Source: Botryllus schlosseri (lineage: Eukaryota). From it: a DNA stretch of 64,000 bases. Location: positions 31,312,001-31,376,000 of the forward strand of contig CM119372.1 of assembly GCA_051294905.1 (NCBI GenBank), in the 5' to 3' direction. The translations under genes and the position numbers were made by a program. Positions 9,501 through 61,000 of this stretch are shown piece by piece (the stretch's first letter is position 1; each line of letters opens with the position of its first letter). Below the pieces are notes generated by a model. It saw nothing but the letters and a program-made list of their open reading frames with translations. It ran no database searches and was not told where the DNA came from.

Positions 9501-10562
9501 CTGTACAGTGGTTTTATGCAGTGCATGTTGCAGGTTTGTTGATGATCCATTTATTAAGTGGAATTGTAGTCGTCGTGCTGTATTATACGCTAAGATCTTA
9601 TGTAAGTGAATTAATCCCCGCTGACATCATGAGACTTCGCTTGATGTATGAACTGAGCATGAACACTAAACTGTTTCGCTATAATACTCTGTTTTGTGAG
9701 TTGAGCCGACATTTGCAAGTGTAAAAACTGATCGCAAGACGTGGACACCACAGAACGGTAGCTTTCATAATTCCGTGGTCAACGATACGCCCCTGCCTAA
9801 TGTTGAATACTTCAAATACTGATACGCAGTCTAAACATTGTTTGGTCAATCCTATTACTCAGCTATTCGGTATGTCGCGAAGGACCGACCGAACTAACAA
9901 CAACGTTTTCAATTCTACGATACTTAGACCACTATTTCGAAACACGGATACAACTTCAACAACTTGTTTATCTTCCAACAAAAATCCAAGTAACCCCAAT
10001 ATATGTTGAAATATATTAAATACTTGCACAATACATCTTTGTAGAATGTTAGCAACTCACTGCCGTTACGTGATAGCTTAGATACAAAAAATCAATACAT
10101 GGCAAACCAATATTGTTATTATTATTATAGATAGTAAAAAATGAAGTAGCGCTTATCGCCGTTAACGATCTGGTGCACCTCGTGAGTAAACGTTAAATCA
10201 GTAGAAATACATATCAAAAGTTCACATTAATCACAGCAATATATGATGCGCGTATTTACAACATGATAAAAGAAAATAGTCGATTGTGTCAGGTAGAAAA
10301 CGGAAGTCAAATGTAGGAGAATCAATACACCCAATTTTAAACAGATGCACTGTTGGTAGTTAATGACCTGGAAAAAGGCAAACAAAATATTATCATGTCG
10401 ACGCGATATTCCAAATGACGATATTCGGTCGAAAACGGACGGACGCAATAATTCATCCGCAATTTCATTTCCGGGAATGCCGCTGTGCCGCTGACGGCTA
10501 CGTCGATGCCCGAATGATCCGTTCAAGATAAGGATACATTTCATGAAGCCAATATTGTAATA

Positions 10563-14500: not shown

Positions 14501-14900
14501 TGTTAGTGGTATTAAAAACAAACAAGGCCGATAATCACTCCTAATTTAGATTTTTCTTAACGTACTTTGAATGACGTTTCCGGCAATACGTTGATTGTGT
14601 GAAATATATTGGCGAAAGACCCTTGAATTCAGCTTTGAATTGGGCATACTTTGGAATATGTCGCACATTTGGAATGGCGGGCATATGTCCGATACCCAAT
14701 TTTGCCTGAGGTTGTTAGTGGTATTAAAACAAACAAGGCCGATAATCACTCCTAATTTAGATTTTTCTTAAAGTACTGTGAAAGACCTTTCCGGCAATAC
14801 GTTGATTGTGTGAAATATATCAGCGAAACATTCTTGAATTCATCTTGGAATTGAGCATACTTTGTAATATGTCGCCCATTTGGAATGGCGGTCACATATC
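11533..14900 (-). repeat. Tandem array, 15 full units of 211-212 bp (right arm, inverted)
   Basis: Unit markers at 11579, 11790, 12002, 12213, 12424, 12635, 12847, 13058, 13269, 13480, 13692, 13903, 14115, 14327, 14538, 14749. Confidence 0.95.
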
Positions 14901-17536: not shown

Positions 17537-18552
17537 CGCTAAACGGACGGGGATTCCAACCTGGTATATTTGCATGAATGCATGAACCTGAGTCATGGTA
17601 AAGCGATGCAATGGCTTTACACTGAAGGCTACCAGTTTTATTTGTAATGACATTCCATTTAAACTTAGCGGGCAATTTTCGTATGCCTTGAACTATGCCA
17701 ACAAAATCCCTCAGTAATTTCCTATATAACTTATATCTCAATTTTGCCATATGTATTTATTTACCTTTCTATTGACGAAACATTAATAAATATATTGTGA
17801 TGAACCTTTTATTACAAGTAAAACTATTTATTATTAAGAGCCATAGATCGATCTTGTCTCAATATTGACATTTGTGCAGTATTTTCGATAAAATCAAATG
17901 ATCACAAAATTCTTCATGATCAATTTTAAGGGTCATGAGAAATACTAATTATCTGTAAAGAACGGGATGCCGAGAAAAAAACTGAAGTCACTCGTCAAGA
18001 TGCTTCATTTATTATTTATAAACACTAGCCTACCATACCAAATAGCAATATATTTCTTCAATCGACGTTTCTGTCCAAGTACAGTAGTTTCAACCATCAT
18101 ATACTAGTGTTTTGTTCGAGGACTAATTATTGTGTATCGTACTAAATTTGACTCGTACTTTGTAGTAGCATACTAATTTTATATGAACCATATTGTTATA
18201 TATATTTCGGGCGTATATGTTCTATTCACTGTTATAACTTGTATCTCGCCTACACAATATAGAATCAACTACTCTCGATAGATGGAGTAGACACGATGCC
18301 CACCAGATCACTTTGTCGTAGCTTGATCTCGTAATTGAATAAATACTAATATCAGTGTCTAAGAAGCATATATCCCACTGATATTCATTTTATATCATAA
18401 TTCTTTCATGCACTGTATCTCAGGTGGTGCGTACAATCAATTTACATGTGACTTGTAAAATTTTTATTCCATATTATATTATTATTTGTCATGATAAATA
18501 ATAATAAATTCTCTTCCTCTCACACACACAGACACATCAATAGAGACTTGAT

Positions 18553-21500: not shown

Positions 21501-22421
21501 TCGAAACAGGTACCTTATTACAAAGTATTTTAGTACCTATGATGATGTCATGTCACAACATTAATATTGACTGTAAATGTATCTGTTTTACAACCCCCAA
21601 GAAAATTATGCCGGTGACAAGTCATCCAAAATAAACTTGCATTTTTAGACCAAAACTATTTCGTAGCAACATGCTGTGTTACGGTCAACCGAGTTTTCGA
21701 GGCTCTAATGGTGGGAATAATGTATTGTAACTAAATTATATGCTGATGAAATAGTAGGCCTACTCTTGGTGTGAATGCCTATATTTTCGGTGAGTCACAA
21801 AAACAAGAATCTAACACATTACTACAGAATACAGGTGTGCGCAAAATGAACTGTTCATCAACAACAATGTTACAAGAACATGATTTTAACACAAAACATG
21901 AAAGATGATGAATTATAATGAATATTTATCGGAAATCAGTGTGACTTTTATTGTAAAGCGCGGGTGTGTGTGTGTTGACCTCTGCCTCACTCCGGACAGT
22001 GGCTCCGCTAACCCCTGGGGTTTGTTTGAATCCTGGTAAAGAACCACTGGGCCAAGTTCGGTAATTCATAGACCGCACCCCGCACGTCATTTCGTCTCCT
22101 TCCTATCTTTTCATTTTATCCTTATCTTGTGATGTTTTGAATTGATAAAAATACTAAAATAATGAATGAATGAATGAATCAGACTGTACGGACACTGTTT
22201 TTGACCTGCAGGTCGCCAAGGACAAATCCTGCATGTTCATCGATTTGTGGTCAGCGTTTATGCTGGAAGAAAATTGGAAGAGCATGTTCTGCGACGGTTT
22301 GCATTTTAATGACGCCGGCAATCGATTCGTTGCCAAGCAAATCCTGGAGGAACTATCGAGCTTGGGCGAAGAATGGAAGATAGTTCGGCCTGACTGGAAA
22401 GACTTCTACAATTCTTCTTGA
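18553..22421 (+). CDS. IAH1: Isoamyl acetate-hydrolyzing esterase 1 homolog (SGNH/GDSL hydrolase), 225 aa, 4 exons
   Basis: Exons 18553-18747, 19206-19385, 20717-20809, 22212-22421, all GT-AG and phase 0; blocks FGDSLTQ, NRGFSGYNT, FGANDS, DGLHF. Confidence 0.93.
21175..21370. mobile_element. MITE in IAH1 intron 3
   Basis: TIR CAATGTTCCCTCTAA; perfect TSD CCCGTAAT. Confidence 0.85.
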
Positions 22422-27766: not shown

Positions 27767-28888
27767 GTTATTACTCAGTGTATAGTCGTTTTTCGTATTT
27801 GAGAATTCTCTCATCAAAAGTCATAACATTCCATGCCGACCAACTATCCGTTGGGATTGCCAGCATTCTGATTGCATTTTGTGATATGACGATAAGGGGG
27901 CGACGGAATTTTTCACTATCATAAAGGGGTGCGTGTCTAAAAAAGTTTCAGAACTACTTCCCTACACGGTGTGTGCTTCAAATTGTTACGTCATACCATT
28001 CCAAATCCGACATTTGTAAAAAGTCAATCGGTGCCCGTGATTATTATAAGTCATCAGCGCCCATAAAGAGTGAACGGACATGTCAAAAAAGAAAGCCGAA
28101 ACCTGAAATTCAAAGTTTAATGAAGTCAAGGGTAAACCGGTCATTTTAGTATAGTTATTGACGATCAGGTCGCATTGTTTAAGGAGTATAATTTAAGTCG
28201 ATCTTCTGACAAAAATACGAAGACGTAGGCCTACACTCGGTAAAGGGAGGGCTAATTTCAGAATAACTGCAAGCTTCGCTCCACAAGCCAAGCTCTACAG
28301 TGTCAGGTAGGCAGCGACCAATTAAAGACAATAAGCTGTGTAATATCACAAAATATTTTAATGTCTTGATAGAATAACGCGGATAGGGATTTAAACAGAG
28401 TTCAAAAGGTATCACCGGGGCCTACGATAACTTAAGTTATCGTAGTTAAGTTATCGTAGGCCCCGGTATCACGTTTAACATTGTTTCGAAATGTGACGGC
28501 AGATAACGTTATCTTTTGGTAATCAACCGTCGCTTTCACATTCCCTATTATCAACACATCCATCCACTGATCCGTTTTAATCAAGAGTGTAATTCACTGC
28601 TTTCAATTTAGAAATAAAATTGATGCGCTGAAGAACATAGGTAATATACTTTTTGACTCGGCCCGCAAACGTATATTCCGCTTCTCATTTGGCCCGTGGA
28701 CAAAAGTAATTGCCCACCCCTGCTATAAACAATCAGCCCAGCCCAATAATTATAATTGTCGGGCCATAAGTAGCCTAGTGGGCTATATTGCGAAGCGTCG
28801 ACGTGAAAGCCGACACGTAGTTCCATCAACAAGCAACATAGCATTTAATGTGTTCACCGCAAGAAGTTTATTGAATCTTTTCGTAGGT

Positions 28889-29947
28889 ATGGCTATTTGC
28901 GGTACGTCAAGGTCACATGATGAGGCGGCTTTGGAGTTCGCAGATTGTTACCACAAAGAATCGGAGGTACTCGGTCTTGGCTCTTTCTCGGTTGTAAAAA
29001 TATTCACCGAAAAGTCGTCGGGGAATGAATGCGCCGTAAAAATCGTCAAGAAAGCGTACCTAAAACCAGACGAAATAAGACTGCTAGAACAGGAAAGTAA
29101 TATACTGAGCAAGCTGAAACACCGGAATGTCGTTAAATTTAAAGACAGCTTCTCTAATCCGCAGTTTTATTATCTCGTAATGGAACTGCTGACAGGAGGC
29201 GGTCTATATCAATACGTCACGACCAAAAAACGTACATCGCACTGCGAGGAAAACGTTGTGTGGTACATGCGCGACATACTGAACGGACTGCACTATTGCC
29301 ACGGGATGAACATCATTCACAGGGACTTGAAACCTATGAACTTGTGTGTAGCTTTTGACCTCGGACGTGAAGTTGTGAAGTTGATAGACTTCGGCGTGGC
29401 GGTTGACACGAAGGGAAGATCTCGATATCGGCATGGAATTGTCGGCACGCTCGGTTATAGAGCCCCGGAAATGATTAATGACGAGAAGTACGGAACTGCA
29501 GTCGACCTATACGGCTGCGGATGCGTCCTTTATAATCTACTTATCGGCTGCCACCCGGGCAGCGGCGAAATATCGTTGCCTTCCCCACACCGTGGGCTTA
29601 TCTCAAATCCGGCGGTGGATTTACTGGCAAAACTATTGAATCCTTATCAAGACAAACGGATTACGGCCGCGCAAGCTTTGAATCATTCGTTTTGTAGTCT
29701 GCGCGAACGCGGGGCACTGAACAAACATCTTGACATAGCCGTGGAGAGATTGACAGAATTCACGCAAAAGAAGATGTGGAAAACAGCGGCAGCCGTCGGG
29801 GTTATTACCAGCGTGGCGATGGCGCCGATTGTCGGAGCGGCAATGGGAACTTCGCTACGTTTGGAGCCGCTCAGCTCATCTAAGAAGACAGTCACGTTTT
29901 CAAATCCCACGACTCGTAAATCCAGCGATGTAAGATCTCGTTATTGA
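28889..29947 (+). CDS. Intronless CaMK-group Ser/Thr kinase (CaMKII/CASK-like, divergent), 352 aa
   Basis: GLGSFSVV, AVKIV, HRDLKPMN, DFG, GTLGYRAPE and KRITAAQAL motifs, then a regulatory-like segment; first in-frame ATG at 28889. Confidence 0.9.
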   Translation: MAICGTSRSHDEAALEFADCYHKESEVLGLGSFSVVKIFTEKSSGNECAVKIVKKAYLKPDEIRLLEQESNILSKLKHRNVVKFKDSFSNPQFYYLVMELLTGGGLYQYVTTKKRTSHCEENVVWYMRDILNGLHYCHGMNIIHRDLKPMNLCVAFDLGREVVKLIDFGVAVDTKGRSRYRHGIVGTLGYRAPEMINDEKYGTAVDLYGCGCVLYNLLIGCHPGSGEISLPSPHRGLISNPAVDLLAKLLNPYQDKRITAAQALNHSFCSLRERGALNKHLDIAVERLTEFTQKKMWKTAAAVGVITSVAMAPIVGAAMGTSLRLEPLSSSKKTVTFSNPTTRKSSDVRSRY

Positions 29948-32571: not shown

Positions 32572-34135
32572 ATGGGTGCGTGTATCTGAGCTAGTGGATT
32601 CCGGTCTTATTAATTACTTCGTTGAAGCACGGTTATTTAGCAACCTCTGGTAAAGATTGACGCTATACTTTGAAGATTGGAATTGCTGATACATATCAGA
32701 CCAAATTAAAAAACTCCTTTGATCAGACTCGTGCGATTCCAAATTAGCACTTTTTAACGGGAGGTGTTCCAGTCGCATTAATTTCGGAGGGATCTTACTG
32801 ACCTGACACCCCTAGACTCAATCAACTCAACGACCTCGGACAATACTCCCGTGTATGTATTGGTACTGTTGTATTCTCATGCAGCTAAATTCAATTATGC
32901 GCATTTGTGGAATAATTTTTTTCGGGTTACCGATAATAAAATCTAAAATCCAGACGTGTATGGACACTAAATCACGCGAAGCGCGAAAAAATATTTTAGG
33001 TTGCATTCATCTGCCCCAAAATACTGTCATACTTATTGATTTTACGAAAAGTTGCCAAAAATTTGGGGGGAGCGATCGCCCCTCTCTGGCTACGCCAGTG
33101 GTCTTGCGTAAACCATAAGGAAAGAAACAATACGAAAACAATACTCATAATGTTAAAACGTGATAAAATGCATCAATTTATAATCAGGTTGAACCTCTAG
33201 TAAAATGACGAAACGCATGTGCATAATGTGCAATTATTAAAGAGCCGCAATTAAATGCTGAAAGAGCTGCAGTTTGCCCACCCCTGCTGTATATGCATGT
33301 ATGTCTTGCAACACAAGCAGTTTATACCTCCGGTAACGGGCAGTATTAAATTGCAATCGACGCGATGGATCAATTGGAACATGAGACTGGATTCCTTTCT
33401 GATTTTTTTTAAATCAGGTAGCCTTCTATGCCTCCTGTATTGAATGATGTGCTACCTCGTATCTAGTTTTCAGCGCTCCTCAGTGACAGGCGAGTATCGC
33501 AACGACAATTTTAGCTCATAAAATAACGATTGTATGTATAATTTCGGCTCTCGAAATTACGGGCTATCATGCTCAACTGGAATCATCACAATCGATGCTC
33601 GATTTGGATTCTAATATGCCCATTGCCCATCCTTACATATAGCTGGTCTTAAACGAGTTATAGTGTAGGTTATTTTTATGTACTGATTGCGTGGAGAATT
33701 GTGACGTAAGTAGACCGTGAACCCGATGCTACAGTCCTATGCAGAAAATACATTCCTATTACGAAATCAATGAAAAATATGACCCTTCATTTCTCTAATT
33801 GCTGGACAAGCGTCCAAATTCTTTGCTAATTTGCAATTCACGTATAAAATTGTAGACGTACCGGCAAGAAACTCAACTCGTATCGGCAACGGTCCGACGA
33901 CCAGCGATTGAGAGCCACTGATGTATATGGATTCCAATTTCATTGACGCTTCTCAATCCGTCTTAGAAATTATCTGATTACAATGAGTTGACCTCATTCA
34001 CGCTCAACATGATATTGAATGCGGCATTTATTCAATTACATATATTTTACATACACCATAAGAAACAACGAGCATTGGAAAATATACATATGAACTGAAT
34101 CGCTCCTGAATATTAAATTTCGCAGTGTGTCTCTG

Positions 34136-37100
34136 TTAGAGAGCGGTCGACACCACTTCTTTCTCTTCCGTAACCTCGCTGTAAACAGTTGAACTTTCGA
34201 TGGGCATTCTGAATCGGTAACGAGAAAATTTAACATTAATTCAGATGAGGCTCTTACATGTGCGCTGGTTCAAAAAAGGCATGAATTGTCAACGCAAAAT
34301 ATTCACGAATATGAGTAGGTAGCTATATAATAGAAACTGTGCTTTCAGACGTGAGCTAAATGTACTTGTTTTGCCCTAGCTATATTTATTGAAGGACATG
34401 AAAAGTACTGACATATGGCATATATTCATTGATCATTTGGTCATAATACTTCAAGAAAGCAAAATAAATATTATCGTGATTAATCGTGATCACCTTCTAT
34501 ACAATAATAATCGTCTACTGTGAGATTGTGTTGCAATCATAGCCGTTATATGGCATTTCGCGATCGATTACATTGATTCAGTAATCGGCACATGTCTGGT
34601 CTGTAGTCATGGATACAAGATTCATAATTTCATAGTTCAAATTTCATAGGAATGATTCATTCAGTCGCATAACGTGTAAAGGAAGTCAAACCACCGATAC
34701 AAAACGTTATGGTTACCCATTTTGAATAAGGTATATCCAGAGGTGGTCAGTAACGAAGTACTTCTACCTTTTGGAAGTACTCAAGTAGTTTTCCTCTATT
34801 TCTATTACTTACTCAAGTGGATCTGATTTCTCTACTTCTACTTCGTAATATTTTTTGATCTACTTACTTACTTTTCGCTATTTTCAGTTTGTCAAGTAGA
34901 AGTCGTTTAATCCCCCAAAACGAAAGATAGCCTGAGGAATTTCGGGGCTGTTTTCACGGAGTTCCAACATTTAATATTCATAAAAGTGAAGTAAAGCCCA
35001 GAAATTTTGTTGCGCTTCGCGCACAGTAGTTATGGAGTGACAATATGTTTTCAAGAAAGTATCAGTGAATATAATTTTAGGTACCGGATTGCTTGGTTCC
35101 GCTCACATCGCATTATCGCCCATATCAAATATTTCATCACAGTAAATATGGCCCACCATAACGTTTGAAGCTACCGTTCGCAATCTAGCAATTACCTATC
35201 ATATAGTAATCTAGCAGCCCATGACGTGTCCTGCTAATCTGGAAAATCCGGCTTTTTTGAAAGCTACAACAGTTTTAGCAGATCACCTTAGAAGCTTTAT
35301 GGACAAAAGACATGCAATATATTTTCCGCTTTTTAGAAGTGGTATTCTATTTGTATTTCACTTTCAATTCTGAGTAACATACTTCGAGTTCTAATTACTA
35401 TCAGTTCTTTTGTCTGCAGTACATACATGAATAAGCATAAGCGCAAGTGTAGTAATGCCTCTATTTTCCGAAAATAAAGCTACACTAAATTAGGGTTACC
35501 ATATTTTTGTTTAGCAAATTCCGGACACTCTTTAGCGCACACTAGCGGATTTTAAAATGAGGTGTCACACATTGACCGTCAATATGACGTCACTCTAGCA
35601 AAGCATTGCCCATCGACTGTATACACTATACAGGAATGAAGTGGAACATAGGGCATGAATTGGGCCATCTGTAATGTGAGCTTTGCTGATTGCTACTTGC
35701 TAGGGTTTGCAATAGATTCCTCCACGGGCCGGATGAAATCATCTGGCGGGCCATGTCTGGCCTGTCAGGATTGTGTTTGACAGCCCTGCTATACTGTTAG
35801 GCCGGTGCGGCTATCTGTTTATGTGTTTTAATCAGGTCCGAAACAATATTTTTTCTCCCCCCCTTCCGCCCAAAAAAGCACTGATCTTGGGCCCACCATA
35901 GGGTAGTCGATGTAACTTGTTGGGCACTTACTATATGCAATTGGCTATTAAAATTTATGTATGAATTCTGTCAATAATATTGATTCTTCGATTTATTAGG
36001 CTAGTATTACGTGCACCAGCCGGTTGCCCATCCGGTGATTTCTAACCTTTTATGGTCGCGACCTCATTTCCCACTTGAAAATGTTCTGTGGCAAAGCTCA
36101 AAACTTGATAAGCTGATTACTAAAAAAATTCAGCTTGGCCGTACTTACTCACGGCCTAGGAAGCTGATTACGTCCAACATCATCACGATCCCCAGATAAA
36201 GGCGGACGACCCCAAGATTTGGAACCACTGGCTGTGATTGAAGCATCCAATCGGCCTTAACCCACTCTAGGAATATACCGTTAGCTTATAATTGCGATTA
36301 AAATCAGACTTATTTCAGTAAATGATGGTTATTTATATTTATTTTGATTGCATTTTTTGGCGAGGGTGGTGCCTGGTGCCCATACTAATATCATTATATG
36401 TTGCATTAACTCGCGCGCAGCGTGAAGATCAGTTTTGAATAGCATAAATCTGCTTGAAGATAACATTGTTTATGTTGATTTACGAACAACTTTTGAGCCT
36501 GCTTCCAGCCTTCAAAATTCCGGACATTTAGGCATATTTCAGAAATTCCTCCCGGACGCAGATTTTTCAGTGAAATTCCGGACATGTCCGGGAAATTCCG
36601 GACGTATGGCAACCCTACACTAAATATAACTTTTACGATCCACAATATTTGTTATTAACGTATACTGATCGCGCAAAGTGATGAAACCGTATCCGATACA
36701 ACTTTTACGTATTGCTCTTCGCCGAAGCTTGGGGCCTTATAATATGGTGTTGGGCGCCATATGCCATGATATTTTCTAAAACGGGGTCTTCTAGTAAACA
36801 AAGGGTTAGTATTGCATATTCATATCAATACTATAATTTGCATCCCATGATGCGAAAGAATGCTTATTCTTCCGAAAATTGATACCTCCTGGGATGCATC
36901 AATACGAATCAAGCTCTCTGCACCCTCCGCATAGCTCAATTTGCAGCTTTTGACAGTGCATGCGAACGAATTAAGACTACTTACTTACTTGAGTAGATTT
37001 AAAGTCAGTCAATTCTACTTTTACTTCAAGTAGTTTTAGGTCGCTTATGGAAAAAGTACTTCTACTCGTACTTGAGTAGATTTTTGTCGCTACTTTTTAC

Positions 37101-40100
37101 TTTTACTTGAGTAGTTTTCTAGACTACTTTGACCACCTCTGGGTATATCTGAATTTTTGGCAAATATTTAAATCTAAACGGATAATCTCCGTGTAGTAGC
37201 CTAAATTAAACAGTGTCATATTTTTCTAGAAATATCCGTTTGACATCACAATAATGTATTGAAGACGACGGGGCGAGTATTAAAGCTACAAATACTGACT
37301 TGCTGATAGACGAACGATGACCAGACGCAGACGGAATGTCTTCGTCTACAGCCATCGCGTAATTGTGGTATCCGGCGTCGACTTTGCCATCATCGTACTC
37401 GTCTTCTTCATCGTCTGGTTCTTCGCTAAAATTAAACGCAATGTATATCAGCAACTGCGAAAGCAGGACAAAATTCCTATCGGGTCAATACGCGCGGCCA
37501 AAATACGTATTAAGCCGTATTTATTTACGTTGCTGTGAACTTTATTCATTCACTGCAATTATCTGATTATTCAAACAGGTAGTCTTCTGCATATTAAAGC
37601 ATGTCGTAATTGGTCAAAACAGTCTGCAAACCTGCTCGAGTTGAAGAAAATGAGCCGAAGAAGTCAACCGCAGGTGTCGACTTTACATATTGAACGATAC
37701 ATAATAGACAGGGTTGTAATGACTCGAGACATTTTTTAAAATGCGTAAAATGACTCGACTTGTCCTCAAGTAATTGTGCATGACTCGAACCAAATCATAT
37801 GACTCGAGAATAGAACGGCCAAGACAGACATGTCATTGTAACTGCGAATAATAGTAGAGCCACCATATTATTGGCTGTGTTTTGTGGTATTCATGGTGTG
37901 GACTACTATGGTCATTTACATCAGGTCAATTTTATTCAGTAGCTGCCGACTTGTAACACGACCCACTTCTAGGCTTTTATAAGACACCGCTTACGTGGAT
38001 CCAAGATTTAGGTAGAAATTCTGCAGTCGACCTGTAACGACAATGACTCAGACGACTCGAACCTCTACTCCAGACCTGCGTAAAGTGCGACCCGCGGAGC
38101 TATTCTGTTTGTCGACTATGGGTGATTTACACCAGGCCGATATTCCTTATTTTCGATTCCGTATCTGCCGACTTGTAGCACGGCCCACTTAAAGGCTTAT
38201 ACGCGGATGAGGTAGAAATTCTGGAGTCAACCTCGGTCGGACTCGAACCCACAACCCATTGGTGTTGTAGCTGCGGATCATACCACTACGCTATCTCGCC
38301 ACACGATATACATCACAGTGATTTAGGGCAAGTTTTTGTTGCAGTCGAATCCGACGAAAGTTGCACTTATTTTTCACAAAGGTTGCAGTAAAAATTTGCA
38401 TATATTTTTCACAAAAGTTACACTGCAAAGTTGTATTTATGGACAAAGTTCCTTGAAATTATGAGGATTTGAGATACTCAAATCGATCCGTATCCAAGGC
38501 ACTGTAGCAAAACTCGGTGTTGGCGACTTCAATAAAATCAATAGCCTGAAAAAATTCACCCAGTGGAAACATAATTTTCGGCGGTCTAGCCTGAATATAC
38601 GTCAAAGAACCTCAAATTTAAACGAAAGTGAAATAACCAAGCGATATATTTACATATATAGTGCCAATTATTTCAAGTAAAATGTTGGATGCATGAGAAA
38701 TCGGAAAAATCTTTCAAAAATTTACATGAAAAATCGAAAAAAAGTTGCATGAAATATCGATAAAGTTGAAAAAAATTGACTGAAAAAATGGAGAAAAGTT
38801 GCAAAAAGTTGAACCATAGGATTCCTCCAAACAGCTTAAAACACCATACTACATAACTTCTGAGTATTTAGGAAGCTGCCGGGAGCTGTAAAAAAAGTTG
38901 CAAAAGTTGCAAAAACTTGCTCTAGTGATTATACAATCCTCAAATTAAAAATGTGTCTTCATTTGCCACATCACAGGTGCAGTTTTGTACTATACGATAT
39001 TTGTTTTAGTTTCCCTATCGATCGCCAACATCCTGTGCGGAATAGTCCTGATGATATCCATAATTCCCAATATACTAACGATGCTTAACGGATTAAAAGT
39101 CTACCGACTGAGCTAACCGTGCTGCGTTAGCCATTGTTCGATAGGGGTTGATTCCGTGAGAGAAATAGGGCACTTATCAAACGAAACAAACTAAAACATC
39201 CAGGATCATTCCCGACAAGGGACTTGAACCCTTGACTGTTGGATTGAAACGCCAACGCCCTACCGACTGAGCTATCCGGGGCGGTTTCGTTAGCGTTCAA
39301 TAGGGGTTAATTGTTTAAGAGTAATAGGGTAATTATTAAAACATCTGAACTAATATACAATGGAACACGCCCGAAAGGGGACTCGAACCCTTGACCGCTG
39401 GGTTAAAAGTCCAACGCTCTACCGCTAGCCTGTGATCGATAGGGGTTGATTGTTTAGGAGTAATAGGGTAAATATAAATCAAATTCGGACGAATATACGC
39501 GCCCGATAAGGGACTTGAACCCTTGACCGTTGGATTAAAAGTCCAACGCTCTACCGACTGAGCTAACCGGGCCGCGTTAGTCAGCGTTCGATAGGGGTGA
39601 ATTATTTAGGAGTAACAGGGTAATTATAAAACAAAGCTGAACTAATATACAAAAAAACGCGCCCGTTGTGGGACTTGAACCCTTGGCCGTTGGATTAATA
39701 TTCGAAATACGAAAATTCCATGACAATGTCCATGTCCAATAGTCCAAGTCCTGATACAGTTGAGTGAAAGCGTTCGGTAGGGGTTGATTGTCTAGGAGTA
39801 ACGGGGTAATTAAAAAACAAAACTTAACTATTATACAAAGGAAGGCGCCCGATAAGGGACTTGAACCCTTGACCGTTGGATTAAAAGTCCAACGCTCTAC
39901 CGACTGAGCTAACCGGGCCGCGGTAACCAGCGTCCGATAGGGGTTAATTGTTTAGGAGTATTAGGGTGATTATAAAACAAAACTGAACTAATATACAAAG
40001 GAACACGGCCGATAAGGGATTTGAACCTTTGGCCTGGATTATGATTCGAAATCCGAAAATTCCATGACAATGTCCCGATACATTTTAGTAAAAGTCGAGA

Positions 40101-43100
40101 ATCCAAGTGCGATCCCAATGCGGCAAAAATTGCAAATATTTTTAATCCTTTCTAAATTCAAATCCCAAATCATGCACAGCCTGCTTATCATAATCTATGT
40201 CGCGCAGTCTCAGCTCAAATCATATTTTGCAAACAGAAACCGATTTCGAATCGTTGGGCGAGGCCGTTCACAATTCCATTTGGGTGCCTTGGAGTCGACT
40301 TTTATCAAAATACACCAACCAAAACTCTGTCAACAAAAGGAGTTCGTGTACCACCTAAAAATAGTACATTGAACGCTCTCTCATTCACGAAATTTCATGC
40401 TGGTGACGTCATATTTTGTGATACGATTGTTGATATACAATGTTCTTTCCAATTCTCTACTAGTTGCTGACGATTACCCCTGACGAGTGTCAGCCGAAAA
40501 TATTCGGGTTCATTTCAATATAAATTTACTGTTCAATTGTATATTGAAGTTCTGTACCTCCAAGAAGCTCTTCAAACAGAAAGGTGTAGACCAGGGGTGG
40601 GCAACATACGGCCCGCGGGCCGGATCTGGCCCGCGAAGGGATTTTGTCCGGCCCGCGGACAGATTTTCGTCTTACATGATAATGTGGCCCGCCGGCCCCA
40701 GTCTTCCGAGATTCCCCACTACTTGCTCACATACATTTTAGTGATTGTGTGTTTTTATACATATGTATGTACAGCGAGCGAGGGTGGAGCTTACGCGTAA
40801 GTTCGTCGAAGCGAGAAGACTTGCATTATCGGCATTTACGATGTACTGAACCCTAATGTCATTTGTGATAATAATGGTGTTTGTCGACGACATTGGTCAT
40901 TTACACCAGGCCGATATTTCTTATTTTTGATTCCGTAGCACGGCGCACGGCGCACGCTTCTAGGCTTTTGTAAGACACCGACTATGCCAGGTGTCGCCAA
41001 CTGAAAACGGGTCGCGGGCCAATTTCAAATTTCAAGGCCGCGGCCCGCATGAATTCAATATCGAGATAGACAGGCCGCACAGTTTAACAGCCATCTCGTC
41101 ACCTACCTAACCCTAATGCATTGATATCTTGGTAAAGTTGGGGTACCGGGCTTATTGAACGCCTTGAAATCTTAATGAAGGATTGCACCGTGTGTTGATT
41201 GATCAGAGAGAAGCAGACATGGTGGTACCTGTATGACAGGGGTGGCCAACCTGCGACACTAGAAGCAAATTTGTGCGGCCGTGGACACGTAATTCAATTA
41301 GTAGGTGTTGGCGGCCGTCGACGTATAATTTGAATTTACGAATTGACTCCCGATTTCTTGAAAGATTTTTATTATTCTTGAAAGTTTCTTCGAGCAGCGC
41401 GCGATTCAATGCGACTTTATTTTTCGATTTTAATATAGTTGCGTACTTTGCAATCAGAACCCCACAGTACAGTTGCGAACAGATGCGTCACATATAGAAA
41501 TACCAACTCGGAATCGTGTTCTCTTCACTATCTCGACAATCCTGACGGGAGGTCAAGACATGCAAAGAATAGCATGCAACAAAGTGACTAATAATAATTG
41601 GCATGCCCTCACCGACCCTCCACCAACTCATACATCTGATCCGGTGAATCTGATCACATGGAATGAGAAATAATATGTAGAACTACTAATTTCAATGACG
41701 AAATCCATGAATGAATCCGAAAAAATGTTGGCGCTTGGCGCGACTATGAACAGCCTACATTATTTAATAGATTAGTACGGAGTTCGCCGGAAATGGACAT
41801 AGACACTTTAACATGAGTATTTGGCGTCCTGCTAGTTCATTACGACTATTCCCTGGAATGCGGCCGTAGGCTACATGAGTAGTCGAAATGCGGCCGTGAC
41901 TGGCAAAATGATTGGCCACCCCTGCTATATGACAGTGCTGTTCTCAAATCCACATTGTCTTCGTCATTATTGGCGAGAAATGGCTTTGAAGTTGCATTGC
42001 TGTCGTTAAAATACATTCATTAAATACGATTTATTCCTGGTATACGTGGATAAATGGGCGAATAATGTATCGATTCAGCAATCCGGCCCGCCAAGTACTT
42101 AATTTTCCTATATCCGGCCCGCCGACTTGGAGAAGTTGCCCGCCCCTGGTGTAGACTTTTGAAGTCGTGTCAAACTCACATTGCGTCGCGGGCCGGATTA
42201 GACAGTGTTTCCAAAATGTTACCTCATGCCGTTGCTTTTCACTTTCATACTTAATTATTAAGCTAAATGTTTTACTACATTCTATCACCGACCATGGGTT
42301 TAATTCTAGCAAATGGCAACATCATGATTCGCAAGCAATGGAATTGGTGAATTCAAGATGATGCCGGTTGTAACAATTATGAACCTCTAAAACAGTCGCG
42401 TTAACGACGATATAAGTTGGTACATTTTTATGCTTACTTTGCTTTAGTCGTAACTCGTAATATGTCGATTGGCGTATGCGTCGTGTACAGGAATACAAAA
42501 GATTTCACTGCAAACGCGCAGGTTGGAATTTAGTTTATTATTATCAAATCGACGTTCGGGTTTCTCTGGAGTCCTGGTACCTTTTGAATTGGAAGTGACA
42601 CAGTATTTTGACCAGAGATATCAGAATCATATTCTTGTGTATCTAATATATTATACATGTAAACTGCACGTAATGGTTCTGCATTGGCGTTTTCGTGTTC
42701 CATTTTTCCATGGACTCTGAACTGAGTGTGCACTTTTTGCCTTCTGGAAATTGGGTGTCAATGTCATAGATTTGGTCCTACAGTGGTAACAAGAGTGAAA
42801 TCACAACACCGCAATCGGGTGGCTAAAACATGGTCGACATTTGCCGTCTTGAGGGATTATTTAATGGAAGTATCTCCTACAGATAAATCACAACAGTTGT
42901 TACACATGGAAAGATTATTTTTATGTTCAGTTGTCATTGATTTGTTTAACGAATCAGCCTCCGTGATATGCCTATCATGGCCCTAACTAAATCACGCTCG
43001 CACGATTCAATATGATATTTCTGGCGGATCTTCAACCTACCAACAATTACTAGAAAGTATTATTTCCCTACAATGTCGAAAACTAATATTTAAGAACGTA

Positions 43101-46100
43101 GATAGCATGAAGCCGCCAGTCACCGTAATCCTATGACGTCGATGAATCATATATATTTAGCTGTGTAATGTTGCGCTTGCATGTTTGTCTTACGACTACA
43201 CTGGCCCTCACATATACTCTAGTGAACCATCTGATTTGAGCAAACACGTGTCAGTGTAAAAGAGTTCTATTATTATCGATTCATTACGTGCATTGGTACT
43301 GCTATCGCTTTAACTGGGCGATACTCTTTGTTATGTTAATGTCACTAAATTCGACACACGGGTCAGCCGCAATGTTATATTTCGAAAGTTGAACAGCGTT
43401 AGACTTTATCTATGAGCTTTGGCCCCCGACGGAAATGGTAAAACTAGCCTATGTTACGCTGAATAATCGGAAAATTAAGTATTCACGATTTCCAAGTTTG
43501 TATTTTGTCGACGTCTTTGATTTGGAGCGGTCACAGGAACTAACACATTTATCAAAATGGTTATGGATACGGTGGAACATCGCACTTTTTTCAGCCATGT
43601 TTTAGCGATTCCTGCCACATAAGAGTGCTTGGACATAAGGATATATTATATAATTAAACAGTGAACATGTGTTATATGACGAATCCACATCTCCCCAATT
43701 CAATGACTGTTGTCATCGTTTCATAAATTATAAGATCCGAAATCACGAACGCCCTGCTTATGCCTATATCTATTACATATTTGATTGAAATATTTGCTAA
43801 CTTAAAAAGTAAGCCTACTTATGAATATATCGGGACAATCAATCAGTTTTATTAATATTTTCATCATTTCAAAACATCACAAAACTGCGCCACAATCAAA
43901 AGATAGGAGGGTGTCGAAACAACTTGGAGTAGCCTTTAATATCAGACACCCACCTTAGCCTAGGCATGTGGCGGAGGGTGACATAACGATTCGAGAACTC
44001 GAATCCAAATCGAGTATCAATTTTAATGATTCGAGTTGAGTATAGTGAGAGCCGATGTTTTTGAGTACCGAAATTACACTCCATTTATTATTTTATGCAC
44101 AAAACTTGTCCTTGTGAAAATTTCTGCCGACTGCGGGAACTTTGAAGTTTGTTCACGGGTATATCATATCATTCAAAAACTTTAGAGCAAGGCTACCCAC
44201 TTTCATAGAAACGATATACCCGTGCTGTAATGATTGACCTGTTGAATAGCGTGTCTGATCACCATTTCACCATGTCATATTAGTCAGGGTTACCATATTT
44301 TGCGATCCGAAAGAGAGGAAACTTTTCAAAAATTCTGAAAGCTCCAGTACCGGAAATAAAAACTGATGATTTTGAAAAATTTTTCGACCAATAGTACCGT
44401 GTTCACTAAAAAAAGGTCTCCTTTCCCATATCTACTCTCAAAATACCCGTCGCGTCGTATTTTCAGTTGATTGTCTTGCCAACGCTGACGTTCGCTGCGT
44501 CGGAATCCAGTTTTTGATCGCATTTTAACACATTTCATAGAAAAGAGGACAAAATTCCAAAAAAATAGGACATTTAGGCGTTCTCCCAGGACACTTTCAA
44601 TTTCTTGAAAAAAGAGGACAAATCCTCTTAAAATAGGACATATATGGTAACTCTAATATTGGTGTAATGTGTTGGAAATAATTCATCATTAAGTGTAACT
44701 GGCGATATTAAGTTGGCGGTTTCATGAGACCACATTTCTGAACACTTCTAGTCCATTAACAGTGATGATGTTATACTGAGTGATATTCAAATCATCATCA
44801 TCATTGGTTTATTAGCAATTTTATCAGTTCAATACACCACAAAAAATGCGATACAATGAAAAGAAAGGAAGATGTCGAAGCGACTAGGAGTTGTCTATGG
44901 AATCGGACAACCACCTTGGCCTAGGCGATGTAAAGAGGAGGCATGCACACTGATTGAAAGTAAAGAAGATAGTATAGAAAAAGGAAGCGACAAGAAATAG
45001 GGCGGCATAACTCGAAATGATCGACATAACTCGACGGGACTCGGTGTCGACTATAACTCAGGTACTCGAGTTCGCCCAGCCCTAAACTTTTAAACAGTGT
45101 CACGTTTGCAAATTTGAATCATTTTCTTATCGAAGATCTTATGTGCCAATATGTATTCTTAATTATCAAATAAATACGTTCAGTGCAAATACATTTCAAA
45201 TGAACTGATGGAGGTCTATTTGCCTGGTATATATGTGATATGTAAATTAGGTACATGAGAAATTTACCGAGTTATCTCCGCCATGCAGTAAGCTGTACTT
45301 TCGTTACCCTTTCCGGTTGCTAACTATTAAATGTGCGATTGAATCTGATTCAAATCTGCTCACGGGTTAAATAAGTAGGCTATTTATATTGAATTGGCAA
45401 ATAATCTGTTTTAGTTCGAAGCCAACGTTATAATATTGTTTACACTTTTGTATGAGGTTTATATTTTTATTTTGAGTGTGTTTTGGATTTTTCTTCTATT
45501 TTGCGGTACTTTGGAAATGATCAATAAAACTGTGGGAATATTTTCTATGTTGCAAATGCCATCGTAACGACACCGGAAAAATACTCCGGGTTCTTACTCT
45601 GGAAATGGCCAAACCATATTTTACCGATAACGATGCAGTTTTTGTACAAATTCATTGCGAAAGCGGTGGAGCAAATGTTCTACTTTTACTGATGCAATGA
45701 ATTTGAGATACTTTGCTTTCTCCATAACTATGCAGAGGACCCTGTATGTCTTCAAGTGGAGACAATTCCAGATTGACCCTACTAAGTCCGCTTTCAAACC
45801 TCGAAAACGTTCGAAAATCACGTTTGGTATGATTCAATCAGAGGAAAACGTAAACCTGAAATTGCCACCCCAAAACGGCGAAAACGCAAGAATTAAAGTT
45901 AGGAATATTCAATTCCAGTGTGGATATTCTGTTCTACATGTAGCTGTACTTTACAGTAGGCCAAATAGTGTACAATGTACAATTCCCATTTCAATCTCAT
46001 CCGAAATATGTTCATTGTATCGAATATCGTGATCTCTAGCCAATGTTTGTCAGTTTGGAACGGATGGGTGCAACGGATTTATCGACCACATGCACTATTG

Positions 46101-46422
46101 TCAATCTAATGAATATTATTCAACAACACAAATGGAATCCTGCGAAATAAACAGTCAAAATATATACTCACTAAAATTCATCGCAGAAATAATAATTTAC
46201 AAGCATGAAAGCGAAGGCCACCACAAGAAACACGCAAACAGCGATCGTCCCAACGAGCCAGTTCGCCAGTCCCTCTTCTGCAGCTAAAAGAAATTATAGC
46301 GATGAGTAGATCCCAAAGTCACTCCCGAATTGCAATCGCCATTTACTTGCGCAGCTGCCGACTTGGGCCAGAAGCAGTAGACCGACTGCGGTGGACGCAA
46401 AAAAGTCGGTAAGTTTGATCAT
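34136..46422 (-). CDS. MAP17 (PDZK1IP1)/SMIM24-family small membrane protein, 118 aa, 4 exons
   Basis: Exons 46422-46347, 46283-46172, 37425-37300, 34178-34136 (GT-AG, phases 1,2,2) give MIKLTDFFASTAVGLLLLAQVGSCATAEEGLANWLVGTIAVCVFLVVAFAFMLVNYYFCDEFYEEPDDEEDEYDDGKVDAGYHNYAMAVDEDIPSASGHRSSISNEVTEEKEVVSTAL. Confidence 0.75.
34738..37141. mobile_element. hAT-type element with TACTT-rich subterminal repeats, in intron 3 of the MAP17-like gene
   Basis: CAGAGGTGGTCA / TGACCACCTCTG; perfect TSD GGTATATC. Confidence 0.85.
35491..36617. mobile_element. TAGGGTT-TIR hAT-type element nested in 34738-37141
   Basis: Perfect TSD CACTAAAT; reverse-oriented relative of 4253-5584. Confidence 0.85.
38107..38300 (-). 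mobile_element. tRNA-derived SINE (second family)
   Basis: Minus-strand head GGCGAGATAGCGTAGTGG...GGTTCGAGTCC; further copy at ~55322-56434 split by a hAT element. Confidence 0.65.
39209..39281 (-). pseudogene. Degenerate tRNA-Lys copy
   Basis: Full length, but acceptor and anticodon stems have mismatches and the loop is changed to GTTTCAA. Confidence 0.7.
39500..39572 (-). tRNA. tRNA-Lys(UUU)
   Basis: 73 nt GCCCGGTTAGCTCAGTCGGTAGAGCGTTGGACTTTTAATCCAACGGTCAAGGGTTCAAGTCCCTTATCGGGCG; all four stems pair. Confidence 0.92.
39846..39918 (-). tRNA. tRNA-Lys(UUU), identical second copy
   Basis: Identical to 39500-39572; T-runs ~25-35 nt downstream on the minus strand. Confidence 0.92.
40200..40575 (+). 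mobile_element. Penelope-like retroelement 3' remnant (end of GIY-YIG region plus terminal repeat)
   Basis: FRIVGRGRSQFHLGALESTFIKIHQPKLCQQKEFVYHL ending 40372, followed by a hammerhead motif; related copies at ~63385-63600 and ~54515-54610; left boundary approximate. Confidence 0.7.
40476..40509 (+). ncRNA. Minimal type I hammerhead ribozyme motif
   Basis: ACCC-CTGACGA-G[TGTCAGC]C-GAAA-ATAT-TC-GGGT. Confidence 0.7.
40592..42148. mobile_element. hAT-type element containing nested element 41237-41924
   Basis: CAGGGGTGGGCAAC / GTTGCCCGCCCCTG with perfect TSD GTGTAGAC; inner TSD CTGTATGA / CTATATGA. Confidence 0.8.
44285..44655. mobile_element. hAT-type MITE
   Basis: CAGGGTTACCATAT / ATATGGTAACTCTA; TSD ATATTAGT / ATATTGGT. 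Confidence 0.7.
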
Positions 46423-55029: not shown

Positions 55030-58000
55030 TTACTCAAGGTCAGGGTCGCTGAAATCGAGACCCAACAGGTTGAGAAGTTCAAAGTAAGAGAATTCGAACG
55101 CCCACGTCATGTTCTGGGTGTGGTCCATTTCGTTGGCCTGGATTTTGAGGTTTCGGATAAACTTCATTTTCTCGGCGTAGGCCGCTTTCTCCCTGTAACA
55201 TTAGTGGTCGTTATAATTTGTTGAGAATTATCACTACTCCACAAAACTCAAAATAGCACAATTGGCTGCTTCCAGTGCGCCGACTTCGGGGATAATGAAA
55301 TTTGTTGTTGTTTGCGGTATGCATGGTGTTTGTCGACTACTATGGTCATTTACACCAGGTGAATTTTCCTCATCTCCGCAGCGGCCGACTTCTAGGCTTT
55401 TATAAGACACCGCTTACACAATTGATATGGCGAGGAGGAGCCTAGATAAACCTCCATCACTTAGGTATGTATTCTGGAGTCGACCTCGGTCAGACTCGAA
55501 CCTGCAACCCATTGGTGTTGAAGCAATGGATTATACCAGTGATTCTCAACCGGGGGTCCGCGAAGCATTTTCAGGGGGTCTGCGAAACCTCTAAATTTGT
55601 AAGGTGATTGGTAACCTAATTTTTAGTTTTTTTAATTAGGAAAAGCATGAGACAGTTTCGCTTCATAATTGCTAAAACTTTACGACTCACTTCATTAAAA
55701 CGGTCGTCTGAGATGAACTAGCCGACTGTGCAAACTCATTTCAATTGTCAAATTACCAATAGTCTGCCGACGCAAACATATTGATGCTTATAAATGTATT
55801 GTTGGGGTTTGAGGAAAAATGAAATGTTTGAGATAGCATTTTTGATTTGGACTTGTCAGTCTCAGCAAATTAGTGAGCAGTCGTTTGAAATAAAAATTCC
55901 GGAATTTTTTTTTCGTAATCTGTCGCAATGAAGGAATTGAAACCTCTCCACGATATCCACTTTCTCGTATGATATAACCACTGAATAACTTCAAGATCAG
56001 ATGCTATATAGAAATGACTAGGCTGGACGTGATATGTTCATTAAAACATACACCAAAAGCTGTCTTTGGAAGCGTTACGCGTTAACATTACATTCACCAC
56101 CAATATCTCTTTGTGTAAATGGATTTTTGGCACTCGTTCATACGCAATCGAAGACATGGTATTTCAAGACAATTAATACAGCTGCAAACTTCTTTTCGAA
56201 ATAATAAAAGTGTATCCAATTTCTACATATAATGTGCTGCTATTTTCGAGAAAAGTCATTTTGTGGCTGTTTATCACAAGCCTACAATCAATATTTAGAC
56301 GACACAGATGGCAGTTGCACGATAATTGAGCTAATTCTGAACCAAAACTTGAGGGGGTCCGTGGCGGTCCAAAAGGGGTCTGCGAAGACAAAAAGGTTGA
56401 GAACCACTGGATTATACCAATAAGCTATCTCGCCACCACGGATAATGAGTATCTTTGTGTATCAAATTTTACTAATACCGGCTCCACCTCCAAAATGGGT
56501 ATTAATGCAATTTTGTGAATATCTAAACGACAGGTAATCGGAAATTTCCTGTCCATATACTCAGAATCTTCAAGGGTTTGCGGTGTGATAAAAATTAAGA
56601 GTATCTTCCGTGCACACTCTCTATGAAAAGCAAAATATTCCATCCCGTACCGATTCCTCCAATGCAGTTTTACCAATGTATCTTGGAAACCTTTCCTAGC
56701 TTTCAAATAATACCTGTTCTAACTAGTCATAGGCTATTTCAAAACACTTGCAGCATTATCGAAAATAGACCATGAACGCTATTTCACGTCAGAAAGCGTT
56801 CTAAATCAGTTTGAAGTTTTGCGTTTTACTTCTCCGATTGATCGACAATCCTTCAACCTCTCACATTTTGCAATTGAAATAAATTTGTCAGACAGGCCGT
56901 AAAGTTGATGTGAACTGGCAGTTGAGAATCACTGTGCTAGAAGATCCAACTTACTTTGCCATTATGAAGGCTTGGCGTCGGGCTTCTTCCATCATGATTC
57001 TCGCTTTTTCTTCCTCCTCCAGCCTCCGTTGCTCTTCTCGTCGTTTCTGCTCCTCCAGCTCTTCCTGCTTCCTTCTCTGGTACTCTAGCACTTCCTCTTC
57101 TGCCATTTGCGCCAACATCTCTTTCTCCTGGGAATTTTGGTTCGAGTTGAGATGAAAAATTGAAATAAACCAGAATATTTTCTCAAGACACTCTTCAGGG
57201 GTAATTGATAGCAACTGATAAAGATTTCAAGGGAACTTTGTGTATCAAACGTGACGATTACGACCTACTTCCAGTTGAAAAGCATCATATTTTGCCATGA
57301 ATTAGCAAACTGTATTACAGGCCTTGGAATAAAATTTGCATTGGCACCGTCTCCAGTCATACAGTTTTTGAAACAAAATTTATTAAACTTTGGATTCAGT
57401 GCATATGATGTTGAAAGGTGACACTTTAGCACGTTGTCTTTTAGCCCGGGGTTCGTTTCTCTTTCTCCAGGGTGTCAGCCGATATTATGAAGGAATTACG
57501 TCTTACACAGCACGGCGGTTTAGTTAAGTTAAGTAGGCGTACAGTTTGTCACTCAACGGACGATGTTCAGTCAGGAGGATTTGTGTCTGAAGCTTGTTGA
57601 CAAATCGGGCCTAGTGTATTTCTCTATAGGACAGAGATAGATCATGTCCTTATCTTATATATAAAATATGACCATCACCATCACATAATTCCTTCATAAT
57701 ATTGGCTGCAACGTTCTAAAGTCCGTTCTACGCGCGACTGCCTAACCGCGTCGTGCAAGTACGACAGTAAAGATATTGTGCCAGAAATTCCGCAGCGGGC
57801 TAAGCAACGATGACGCGCAGCCTTGGCGGCTGGAGAGGAACGACCCGTATCCGAAAGTCATTTAATTGCAGCTCCATTATGGTGGCTTTCTGCAGAAAAT
57901 GGCTGCTGGGAAAATTCTTTTGATCTGTGCTTCAATTTGAAACCACATCATTTTTAGAGCACAGTGCCCCTTTAATTAATAATTATATAACCCACTCAAA

Positions 58001-61000
58001 TTTTTTAAACTCTAATCCAGTGGTTCTCAACCTTTTTTTTAGACACGCCCCTTTTATGATAGTGAAAAATTTCGCGCCCCCCTTATCGTCATATCACAAA
58101 ATCCAACCGGGATGCTAGCAACCCCAACAGATTGTTTGAAGGAGGCATGGGAGGTTATGATTGTTGATGAGAGAATTCAAAAATATGAAATTCGGTCTAT
58201 ATATAGAGAAACACGCTTGAATTGAAGGTAAATTACGCCGAGACCGCTTCTTCGCGCCCCCCTAGAGATGCTTTCACGCCCCCCCCAAGGGGGGCGCGCC
58301 CCAAGGTTGAGAACCACTGCTCTAATCGCTTCGCTTTTATACGTTGGAATTGAGCGCTTTTTACCTAACCAAACACTTATGTCGAATACTAGTGAAATTT
58401 GAAGAAAAACGGTATTTTTGAACAACTTTAGTCCCCACGCTATTGTAGTGTCACACTCTATTCTAATGCATTCATGTTATACCAATGGACAGTTTGAAAC
58501 TGCAATCGGTACGAAATAGTTGCCATATCACTGCGATCAACAGGAATACTATTTCATCTCACTCTCTCCAAGGCTTCCTGCTCTTCTAGTGCTTTTAGTC
58601 GTGCTTCTTCCGCTTTACGAAGCTCTTCCTCCCGTTTTTTCTTTTGGATCTCTTCCAATTTTCTCTTATGTTCTTCCTAAAAATATAATCAACACGCTCT
58701 GTGATATGTGTTTGATATGTTATCATTCTATGTGCCCGAGGCCGACTGGTATCTGGCTCGTGGCCTGGAGGGCTGGGGACAACGTTTCAAGTTTTGAATG
58801 TAATAATTTGAGTCCATTGTTAAGAGTCACCAAAATTATACACCCATTCCTACATGGAAATGAGTTTATTGGATGGTATTGCCTTTGAAATTTCGATTGG
58901 ATTCATAGTAGCATCCAAAACATGTAGCATAAGGCTATGAATGTTTGTTTTTTTAATAGCGATGAATCCAAAGTAGTAAAACATAGTTAGTTATGGTCCA
59001 CAAATAAAAAAACATTTATTTTTCCAAGTAAAACTGGCATCATTTTCTTTAGGAGGATGTTACATATTTTTTCCTCGATGTTTTTACGGCATATACACCG
59101 ATTCATGATATACATACACACGATATGAGCATATGCATACCATGATGTACCTATGTCGCTGGACAAAGGAGGTGTAGATATTGCCTTGTAAGTCTTGCAC
59201 CACCCCTCCATGTTATCTCAGAAATGCCGAGTGCCAAATGCGGCAGCCACAGATACCAGTTTTTTTTCTAATCAGGTCTTTGGTCTGACCCGGTCAGAAA
59301 TTGAGCCCACGACCTACTGATCAAGAAGCCTGAGGCTCCACCATTACGCTATCTTGTTGGTTGAGATCGCATAAAAGGTACGGTACATATTTGAAGCTTG
59401 CAATGTGGTCTTAGCGCGTGATAGGCCTACCCAAAGGTTAACACTAACTTGGGATCGACTCTGCCAGTCTGCATTTTGCGTTTCTAATCATATCAACACT
59501 GATGTACCGCAAACTTGTCAATATTCCTTGCTCGAAGCATCGGAAATTTGTACTACTATAAAATGTGGATTTTCCCGCTCCATTGCAATGAAACATTCTG
59601 CGACGATAATTCCCAGAAACCAAAACATTGCATCGTTCAAATCATGTAATGTAGTGATTTATCAAGAACATTGCAGTATACTTCGTGAAAATGCAGAAAA
59701 GATGTGTTTCCCGAACTACAAGTATGTCTTTTGGTGAGAAAACACTAGCTTCCCAATCAGCTCGATTGTTATCGCAAATAAGTGAAGCTTCCGCGAGATA
59801 CATTTCTCAAACTATCTCCGCCGATTAGAAGTTCCAGTTGAAACACGTCACATTGTGATCTCGGTTGAAAATATCTACTTTTATCGGCAAAAATACATCA
59901 TATCAGCGATGTTTGTATTGGATCAAGAGTCCGATATCACTCGACTATATTCAAAGCTATTAATTGGCTTCCAAAGACACCCACCTGCATTCTTTTCTCT
60001 CTTTCTCGCTGCTGCTCTTCTCTCTTTTTCCTCGCCTCTTCTTCTTCCAGCTCTCTCAAACGGGCTTGCTCGGCTTCCGCTTTCCTTCTTTTCATCTCCT
60101 CCAGTCGCCTTCGCTGTTCTTTCTCCAGCTCTTCCCTGTTTGATGAAATGTGAACAGAAAAGTGAAGTAACAGTTGGCATATAGGATATCATTGACATAT
60201 CCTAACAGAAGTGATCAGAAACAAAGTAATACGAGCAGTCAAGATTGGTTTTGCCTGTTTCAGGGTGGCCAACCGTTTCGGCTAAAGGGCCAGATGAGCA
60301 TTATGAACCATCGCGGGAGCCACTTGAATGCTGATGAGCTTTTTTAGTCGTCCGATAGGAGTGAACCGGATTAGGTAACTGTGAAAACAGGACTTATCAC
60401 TACGCATCAAAATCGATAACATTTATGCCACGAAGACTCCTAGCCTCGCAACGCGAGAAAATTTTTCGAAGTTAATGGATGAATTCGCTCAATAATACTG
60501 CCACTTGCATATATTGCGGGTCGCCTCTGTATACCGCAAGGCTCATTTGGCAAGGAAGGATTATTCGGCGCTTGGACATATCAAGCTTTGATTAGCCTTA
60601 CAAGTTAAAAATAAATTACCTGGGTAATTAATTTTTATTTAATATAACCAATTTCGAGAGTGATCTCGCGGGCCACTTAAAACCTTCTCGCAGGCCACGG
60701 ATTGGCCGCCCCTGGCCTACTTGGACTACTCACACAAGTGGTTACATTTAACACTGTGAATCTTGGAAAGCATAAAACAATTTTTGGATAAATTTGTGTC
60801 ACTTTTACGAGTGTAATTGTCATAAGAACCACACGAAATAGGCCTGTATAACGCTCACTTTTGAGTAGAATATCAACACATTGCAGCATTACAGCCAGGC
60901 CTACAATGTTACAACTCCATCACCTCATAGCCTCCTGTTTCTCAAGCTCCTCTTTCTCTCTCCTGGCCTGCTCCTCTTTTTCCTTTCTCTTCCTCTCCAC

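Follow-up and report, generated by a model that had tools for sequence, protein, structure and literature searches.

The 64,000-nt stretch of Botryllus schlosseri DNA analyzed here (contig CM119372.1, positions 31,312,001 to 31,376,000), referred to below as the window, carries on its minus strand a four-exon gene for a small, predicted single-pass membrane protein, which almost certainly belongs to the MAP17/SMIM24 family, named after human MAP17, the accessory subunit of the renal sugar transporter SGLT2. The gene is real, spliced, and expressed, its mature mRNA begins with a stolidobranch spliced leader, and the family is at least as old as the ancestor that tunicates share with vertebrates. 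A MAP17/SMIM24-like microprotein had been proposed in the original prediction, which was made from the letters of this DNA; this proposal is supported by the family profile, the residue spacing around the helix, the position of intron 2, and matches in the PDB.

All gene positions are window positions on the minus strand. The four exons extend from 46422 to 34136 and join in phases 1, 2, and 2 into a frame of 387 nt encoding 128 residues with no internal stop; the introns have lengths of 63, 8746, and 3091 nt, and every one has GT..AG borders. Exon 1 (46422-46347, 76 nt) contains the ATG and a predicted signal peptide (residues 1-25) and ends with a phase-1 donor. Exon 2 (46283-46172, 112 nt, phase 2) encodes a short ectodomain, the putative transmembrane helix from W34 to about L53, and the juxtamembrane C59, and thereby holds the core of the MAP17 family. 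Intron 2 (46171-37426, phase 2) begins four codons past this cysteine. Exon 3 (37425-37300, 126 nt, phase 2) encodes a run of acidic residues next to the membrane and a Tyr-x-Asn motif (Y82) also present in Styela. The coding part of exon 4 (34208-34136, 73 nt) contributes a distal Val-Tyr motif (Y114, 14 residues before the last residue), the C-terminal STAL, and the stop codon TAA. The 5' untranslated region (UTR) comprises 25 nt without an ATG (46447-46423) and is preceded by the trans-splice acceptor AG at 46449-46448. The 3' UTR, drawn from 34135 to 34027 and covered by read depth in the bin 33700-34136 of the raw-read runs, contains a single AATAAA (34032-34027), whose position sets the drawn limit. 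Among the stop-to-stop frames of at least 75 amino acids, exon 3 is the only part of the coding frame to appear, which agrees with the remark in the original prediction that three exons were absent from the list of open reading frames. The predicted exon end points, phases, transmembrane segment, acidic tail, and C-terminal STAL were all recovered when the exons were rejoined.

Transcription was followed in four of the 24 listed sequencing runs, which derive from four studies. X18 and X22 are bulk RNA-seq runs, of which about 6% and 13%, respectively, were read, and X1 and X3 are contig sets that are RNA only by our guess; the libraries are unstranded, and the strand was assigned from splice signals. 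All three joints, including that between exons 1 and 2 (46283/46347), were found in each of the four runs. The three joints are covered by 139, 200, and 362 raw reads in X18 and by 266, 232, and 178 in X22, with 63 additional X22 reads carrying a variant allele, and spliced contigs cross the joints in X1 and X3. Thus, transcripts do join the four exons in the way that had been predicted. The expression level is roughly 200-300 reads per kilobase per million mapped reads, and minor isoforms may occur beside this form, the joints listed being 15 of 56. The variant allele, represented by the 63 X22 reads, shortens exon 4 by 9 nt in frame (34181-34208) just upstream of the conserved distal tyrosine. 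Substitutions in the coding exons, three of them among the best 40 of 857 table rows and one from another read table, are synonymous third-position changes in all four cases, for which the chance is about 0.012 (for transitions). The consensus of loose read ends in X18, from which three far-end letters were dropped as unreliable (agreement 0.63), yielded five further substitutions, three synonymous and two conservative (V54L and D71E). The four synonymous third-position substitutions and the frame-keeping 9-nt allele point to coding constraint.

The spliced leader was recognized from reads that leave the genome at 46449, where an AG lies 25 nt before the ATG (287 reads in X18 and 242 in X22). 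The loose letters together with the genomic AG reproduce 25 of the 25 letters of an ascidian spliced leader. According to the published lists, the same leader occurs in Boltenia, two Botryllus species, Halocynthia, Herdmania, Polyandrocarpa, and Styela plicata (PMC3795323). The leader of Ciona is reported to be different, and vertebrates are reported not to trans-splice (PMC7986045). The spliced leader on the mRNA therefore indicates a tunicate host. We take the seven leader-bearing species to be all stolidobranchs, with Styela and the families of the order looked up and the remainder assumed.

Assignment to the family is based on exon 2. Its frame matches the Pfam family PF15807 (MAP17) with 35.2 bits (E 1.5e-8), above the curated cut-off of 29.6 bits, and this is its sole family match, so that the profile search named as a check in the original prediction is positive; exons 1, 3, and 4, searched singly, have no Pfam match. 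The matches to exon 2 among 177,635 PDB sequences are three in number and are all human MAP17. When a profile built from six relatives was run over the 2818 six-frame pieces of the window, only the exon-2 frame scored, with 55.8 bits against 6.9 for the next piece, and no second copy of the gene was found in the window by this search. Three fish PDZK1IP1 proteins, combined into a profile, gave 30.7 bits with the spliced protein, the best of 500 shuffles reaching 8.1. The spacing from the tryptophan to the cysteine is 25 in all seven proteins compared and in human MAP17 (W30 to C55), the juxtamembrane cysteine (C59; human Cys55) is invariant in the compared sequences, 10 of 29 columns of the helix block are invariant across the seven sequences, and the identity to human MAP17 from Trp to Cys is 12/26.

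The gene structure leads to the same assignment. Human PDZK1IP1 is described as having four exons, with c.176+1 as the point where exon 2 meets intron 2 (PMC5896160), a boundary also given in PMC10853784. Intron 2 interrupts codon 63 in phase 2 at Cys59+4 in the window gene and codon 59 in phase 2 at Cys55+4 in the human gene; for this intron, the suggested comparison with vertebrate intron phases thus shows the same codon offset and the same phase. An indirect hint on intron positions comes from two halibut isoforms, which differ by one indel directly behind the signal segment and another at Cys+5, the latter one codon off the position of intron 2. With human MAP17/PDZK1IP1 (PF15807; PDB 7VSI, 7WMV, 8HDH, and others), the window protein shares the four exons, the hydrophobic N-terminus, and the short T-x-hydrophobic ending. 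It differs in its length of 128 residues, compared with 114 in human MAP17, and in the trans-splicing of its mRNA, and its tail is longer, very acidic, and without detectable match to the tails of fish PDZK1IP1. SMIM24, also known as MARDI, falls under the same Pfam family model as the window protein; it was compared by way of this model, Atlas clusters, and published reports.

Further members of the family were found in other tunicates. Among 1.84 billion representatives, two entries were matched, one from Styela clava and one from Ciona intestinalis, both uncharacterized. A profile search identified 7 of 8000 candidates, namely these two, a Clavelina protein, the metagenome fragment P0008, and three flatfish proteins named PDZK1IP1; a precomputed PF15807 annotation is on record for each of the seven, and the named vertebrate matches are PDZK1IP1 in three of three cases. 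In the helix block, the window protein is identical in 22 of 29 positions to the Styela clava protein (XP_077973416.1), in 20 of 29 to that of Clavelina lepadiformis (XP_076815168.1), and in 17 of 29 to that of Ciona intestinalis (XP_026690506 / UniProt F7BP51), all three of which are labeled as uncharacterized. These proteins resemble the window protein in their acidic tail and T-x-L end. On the Pfam model, the full-length tunicate relatives score 34.7-57.4 bits, above the cut-off, the Styela and Clavelina proteins over most of the length of the model, and the top three Atlas matches of the Ciona protein are MAP17/SMIM24 clusters, with SMIM24 clusters ranking second and third. Styela clava, Ciona, and Clavelina belong to three different orders, that of Ciona being our assumption. 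The nearest relative is the Styela protein, with 45% identity over 108 columns; at this distance, the two do not represent the same gene. In a tree of seven rows, which comprised three fish PDZK1IP1 and four tunicate proteins without SMIM24 and without an outgroup, the window protein grouped with that of Styela clava at 98/99 support. Together with the spliced leader, this grouping substantiates the supposition that the host is an invertebrate chordate.

P0008 scores 25 bits, below the Pfam cut-off, and its match spans only the equivalent of exon 2 and ends at Cys+3, as would be expected if it were one exon of another ascidian read into the same intron by a gene caller. Searches of two protein collections did not recover the window's own protein; a word-seeded search with a 40-residue piece gave 13 candidates but no match, and exon 3 gave no candidate, both of which are weak negatives. 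The 40-residue piece retrieved only unrelated clusters from the Atlas, with a recognition value below the level of known families, the query being too short. A pattern scan of metagenomes led from 23 matches to a single locus, which sits in a bacterial permease-like frame and was rejected as a chance match.

These relatives also bear on the age of the family. No members from amphioxus or non-chordates turned up, in searches too weak to show absence. A statement that tunicates possess the MAP17 family was not found among the papers listed from the open-access literature, outside of which most subscription papers lie, and a paper on SLC5 evolution contains no tunicate terms (PMC9309457). One co-mention of MAP17 and Ciona proved unrelated in substance, MAP17 being there a domain label on synaptotagmin 2. 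The earlier suggestion that the family is older than assumed thus holds against the literature searched and fails against the databases, where tunicate members had already been deposited with PF15807; as this tag is already on their records, the pre-vertebrate age is implicit there. The family and its deposited tunicate members were known before, and the new element is this expressed stolidobranch gene.

The protein is predicted to cross the membrane once, with N-out/C-in topology. Its best 19-residue hydropathy is 1.70 in the N-terminus and 2.86 in the helix starting at about W34, a pattern like that of four relatives; hydrophobicity by itself is not above chance, as the window has seven stretches that attain this threshold. 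Cleavage of the signal peptide probably occurs near residues 25-27. There is no Lys or Arg directly after the helix, and the N-out orientation is assigned because of the presumed signal peptide. The last 69 residues contain 21 Asp and Glu versus 4 Lys and Arg. Class I PDZ ligands end in S/T-x-hydrophobic. STAL is such an ending, with the stop codon located on a spliced exon, and would be expected to bind a PDZ domain. A T-x-L/M ending is present in all seven full-length proteins compared (6/6 relatives), and each of the seven has Val/Ile-Tyr 14-20 residues before its end.

From these features, a role as accessory subunit of a transporter with a scaffold anchor can be proposed, towards which we lean with modest confidence. 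The outer half of the helix would pack on the last helix (transmembrane helix 13, TM13) of an SLC5 sodium-solute transporter, the PDZ-type tail would anchor the protein or the transporter to a cell-surface scaffold, and the protein would affect surface expression of the transporter as human MAP17 does; both the choice of an SLC5 protein as partner and this last effect are drawn entirely from the analogy to human MAP17. In the SGLT2 complex resolved by cryo-electron microscopy, one MAP17 helix is reported to lie on TM13 and to make contact by its extracellular half only (PMC10803289). MAP17 is reported to raise the surface expression of SGLT2 (PMC10203128), and the human STPM end to bind PDZK1 (PMC5896160). 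MAP17 has also been described to bind SGLT1 at conserved residues (PMC9616851), and SMIM24 to activate SGLT2 as well (PMC7462921, PMC5896160), so that the partnership looks family-wide. Counted from W34, the identity of the window helix to human MAP17 is 8/12 in the outer half and 3/12 in the inner half, a pattern that is expected if the partner-binding face has been kept. The invariant residues W30, G33, V37, F40, and L41 (human numbering) occupy a sector of about 100 degrees when placed on an ideal helix, with I35 outside.

Several observations weigh against an accessory subunit of this kind. The conservation of the outer versus the inner half across tunicates and fish (0.87 vs 0.67) is inflated because those matches were found by words from that region. 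Human V44, a reported contact to SGLT2 (PMC10853784), is Ala in the window protein. Human SGLT1 is reported to work without MAP17 (PMC10203128, PMC9616851), and the ancestral transporter may therefore not have needed a helper. No profile of the relatives gives the tail more than 4.5 bits, and 1113 of 2000 shuffles score as high as the tail alone against the Ciona tail; against the Styela tail, the whole tail reaches a score of 69, which none of 2000 shuffles attains, and exon 3 alone has an E value of 0.002. The neighbors of human MAP17 are given as TAL1, STIL, and CYP4 genes (PMC5896160). No convincing bHLH or CYP neighbor of the TAL1/CYP type was found among 2818 frames of the 64 kb in a crude motif scan, which can miss motifs split by introns.

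Some of these points would suit a different function, that of a trafficking adaptor or a general anchor for PDZ scaffolds. The helix would then bind itself or some other membrane protein, and the pairing with SGLT would be a later development, within vertebrates. The T-x-L/M ending kept in all seven proteins agrees with such a role, as does the independence of SGLT1 from MAP17 (PMC10203128). Human MAP17 has been described as a PDZK1 anchor acting with NHE3 and NaPi-IIa, and a Cys55-linked MAP17 dimer has been considered possible (PMC5896160), the corresponding cysteine being invariant in the compared proteins. A role of the tail only, however, gives no reason for residues identical to human MAP17 to cluster in the SGLT2-contacting half of the helix, and we regard this alternative as unlikely.

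A transmembrane adaptor of the SCIMP/LAT type has a comparable layout. Accordingly, the protein might act as a tyrosine-phosphorylated signaling adaptor, in which tyrosine motifs of the acidic tail recruit proteins with SH2 or PTB domains and any regulation of transport is secondary. The Val/Ile-Tyr near the end of all seven proteins and the second tyrosine motif common to Styela are in line with this, the last 13 residues of human MAP17 are reported to bind NUMB (PMC5896160), and the Styela protein has a faint match to SCIMP (E 0.18). This match is not significant, however, and is confined to Styela, the window exons having no match to an adaptor family. An Asn at position +2 of the distal tyrosine is present in Ciona, Clavelina, and fish and missing in the window protein and in Styela, and conservation is far higher in the helix than in the tail; a primary signaling function is quite improbable. 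Finally, an unrelated small membrane protein with a helix that is MAP17-like by convergence could account for a family match over about 36 mostly hydrophobic residues, for the lack of a Pfam family in the other exons, and for the unrelated Atlas clusters, but it is largely refuted, and highly improbable, in view of a score that passes the curated cut-off without a rival family, the fixed W-to-C spacing, the codon and phase of intron 2 and the exon number shared with human, and the tunicate relatives, with their scores on the family model and the MAP17/SMIM24 clusters matched by Ciona.

Intron 2 contains interspersed repeats and a tRNA array. The array (39100-40075, minus strand) consists of tandem units of about 160-350 nt with two intact tRNA-Lys(TTT) copies of 74.6 bits each, a weaker copy of 44.2 bits that is read as tRNA-Glu(TTC), and partial copies, and looks like a decaying tRNA-Lys array. 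The intronic segments 40255-40691 and 44625-45061 are deeply covered by reads in each of the four runs, with many loose ends, and are probably high-copy interspersed repeats, not exons of the MAP17-family gene. Upstream on the same strand, a multi-exon gene for a Glu/Arg-rich coiled-coil protein (55033-61177), presumably KIAA2012-like, has DUF4670 matches that may owe much to low complexity; its likely last exon ends at 55033. An operon of the two genes is unlikely, the stop of the upstream gene lying about 8.6 kb from the trans-splice site. Downstream, on the plus strand, an intronless frame of 458 codons (28571-29947) encodes a full protein kinase domain (195 bits), which we take to be CaMK-like, and is possibly a retrocopy. 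Three exon-sized frames of a GDSL/SGNH hydrolase, which in our assumption resembles IAH1, follow at 18544-22421 on the same strand. Two arrays of a 211-212-nt unit, with about 15 and about 16 copies (6341-14903), flank a frame of 326 codons (10563-11543, minus strand) with a match to a ubiquitin protease (UCH), and this region may represent a mobile element that contains part of a protease.

For the family, the gain is modest, as the family was known and tunicate relatives were in databases with a Pfam tag. How MAP17 activates SGLT2 is described as still unresolved (PMC10203128, PMC12605011), and SGLT2 is a major drug target. Tunicate members from three orders provide a natural, deeply diverged series, which shows which residues of the helix have stayed fixed and which could be swapped into the standard oocyte assay. 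More tentatively, and with less confidence than we place in the accessory role itself, a MAP17-SLC5 partnership may have existed in the ancestor of tunicates and vertebrates, in which case the ascidian gene would be the pro-orthologue, still unduplicated, of both MAP17 and SMIM24, with a helix that would still activate human SGLT2. If true, this helper subunit, familiar from the kidney of mammals, would be older than the kidney tubule and older than SGLT2 itself.

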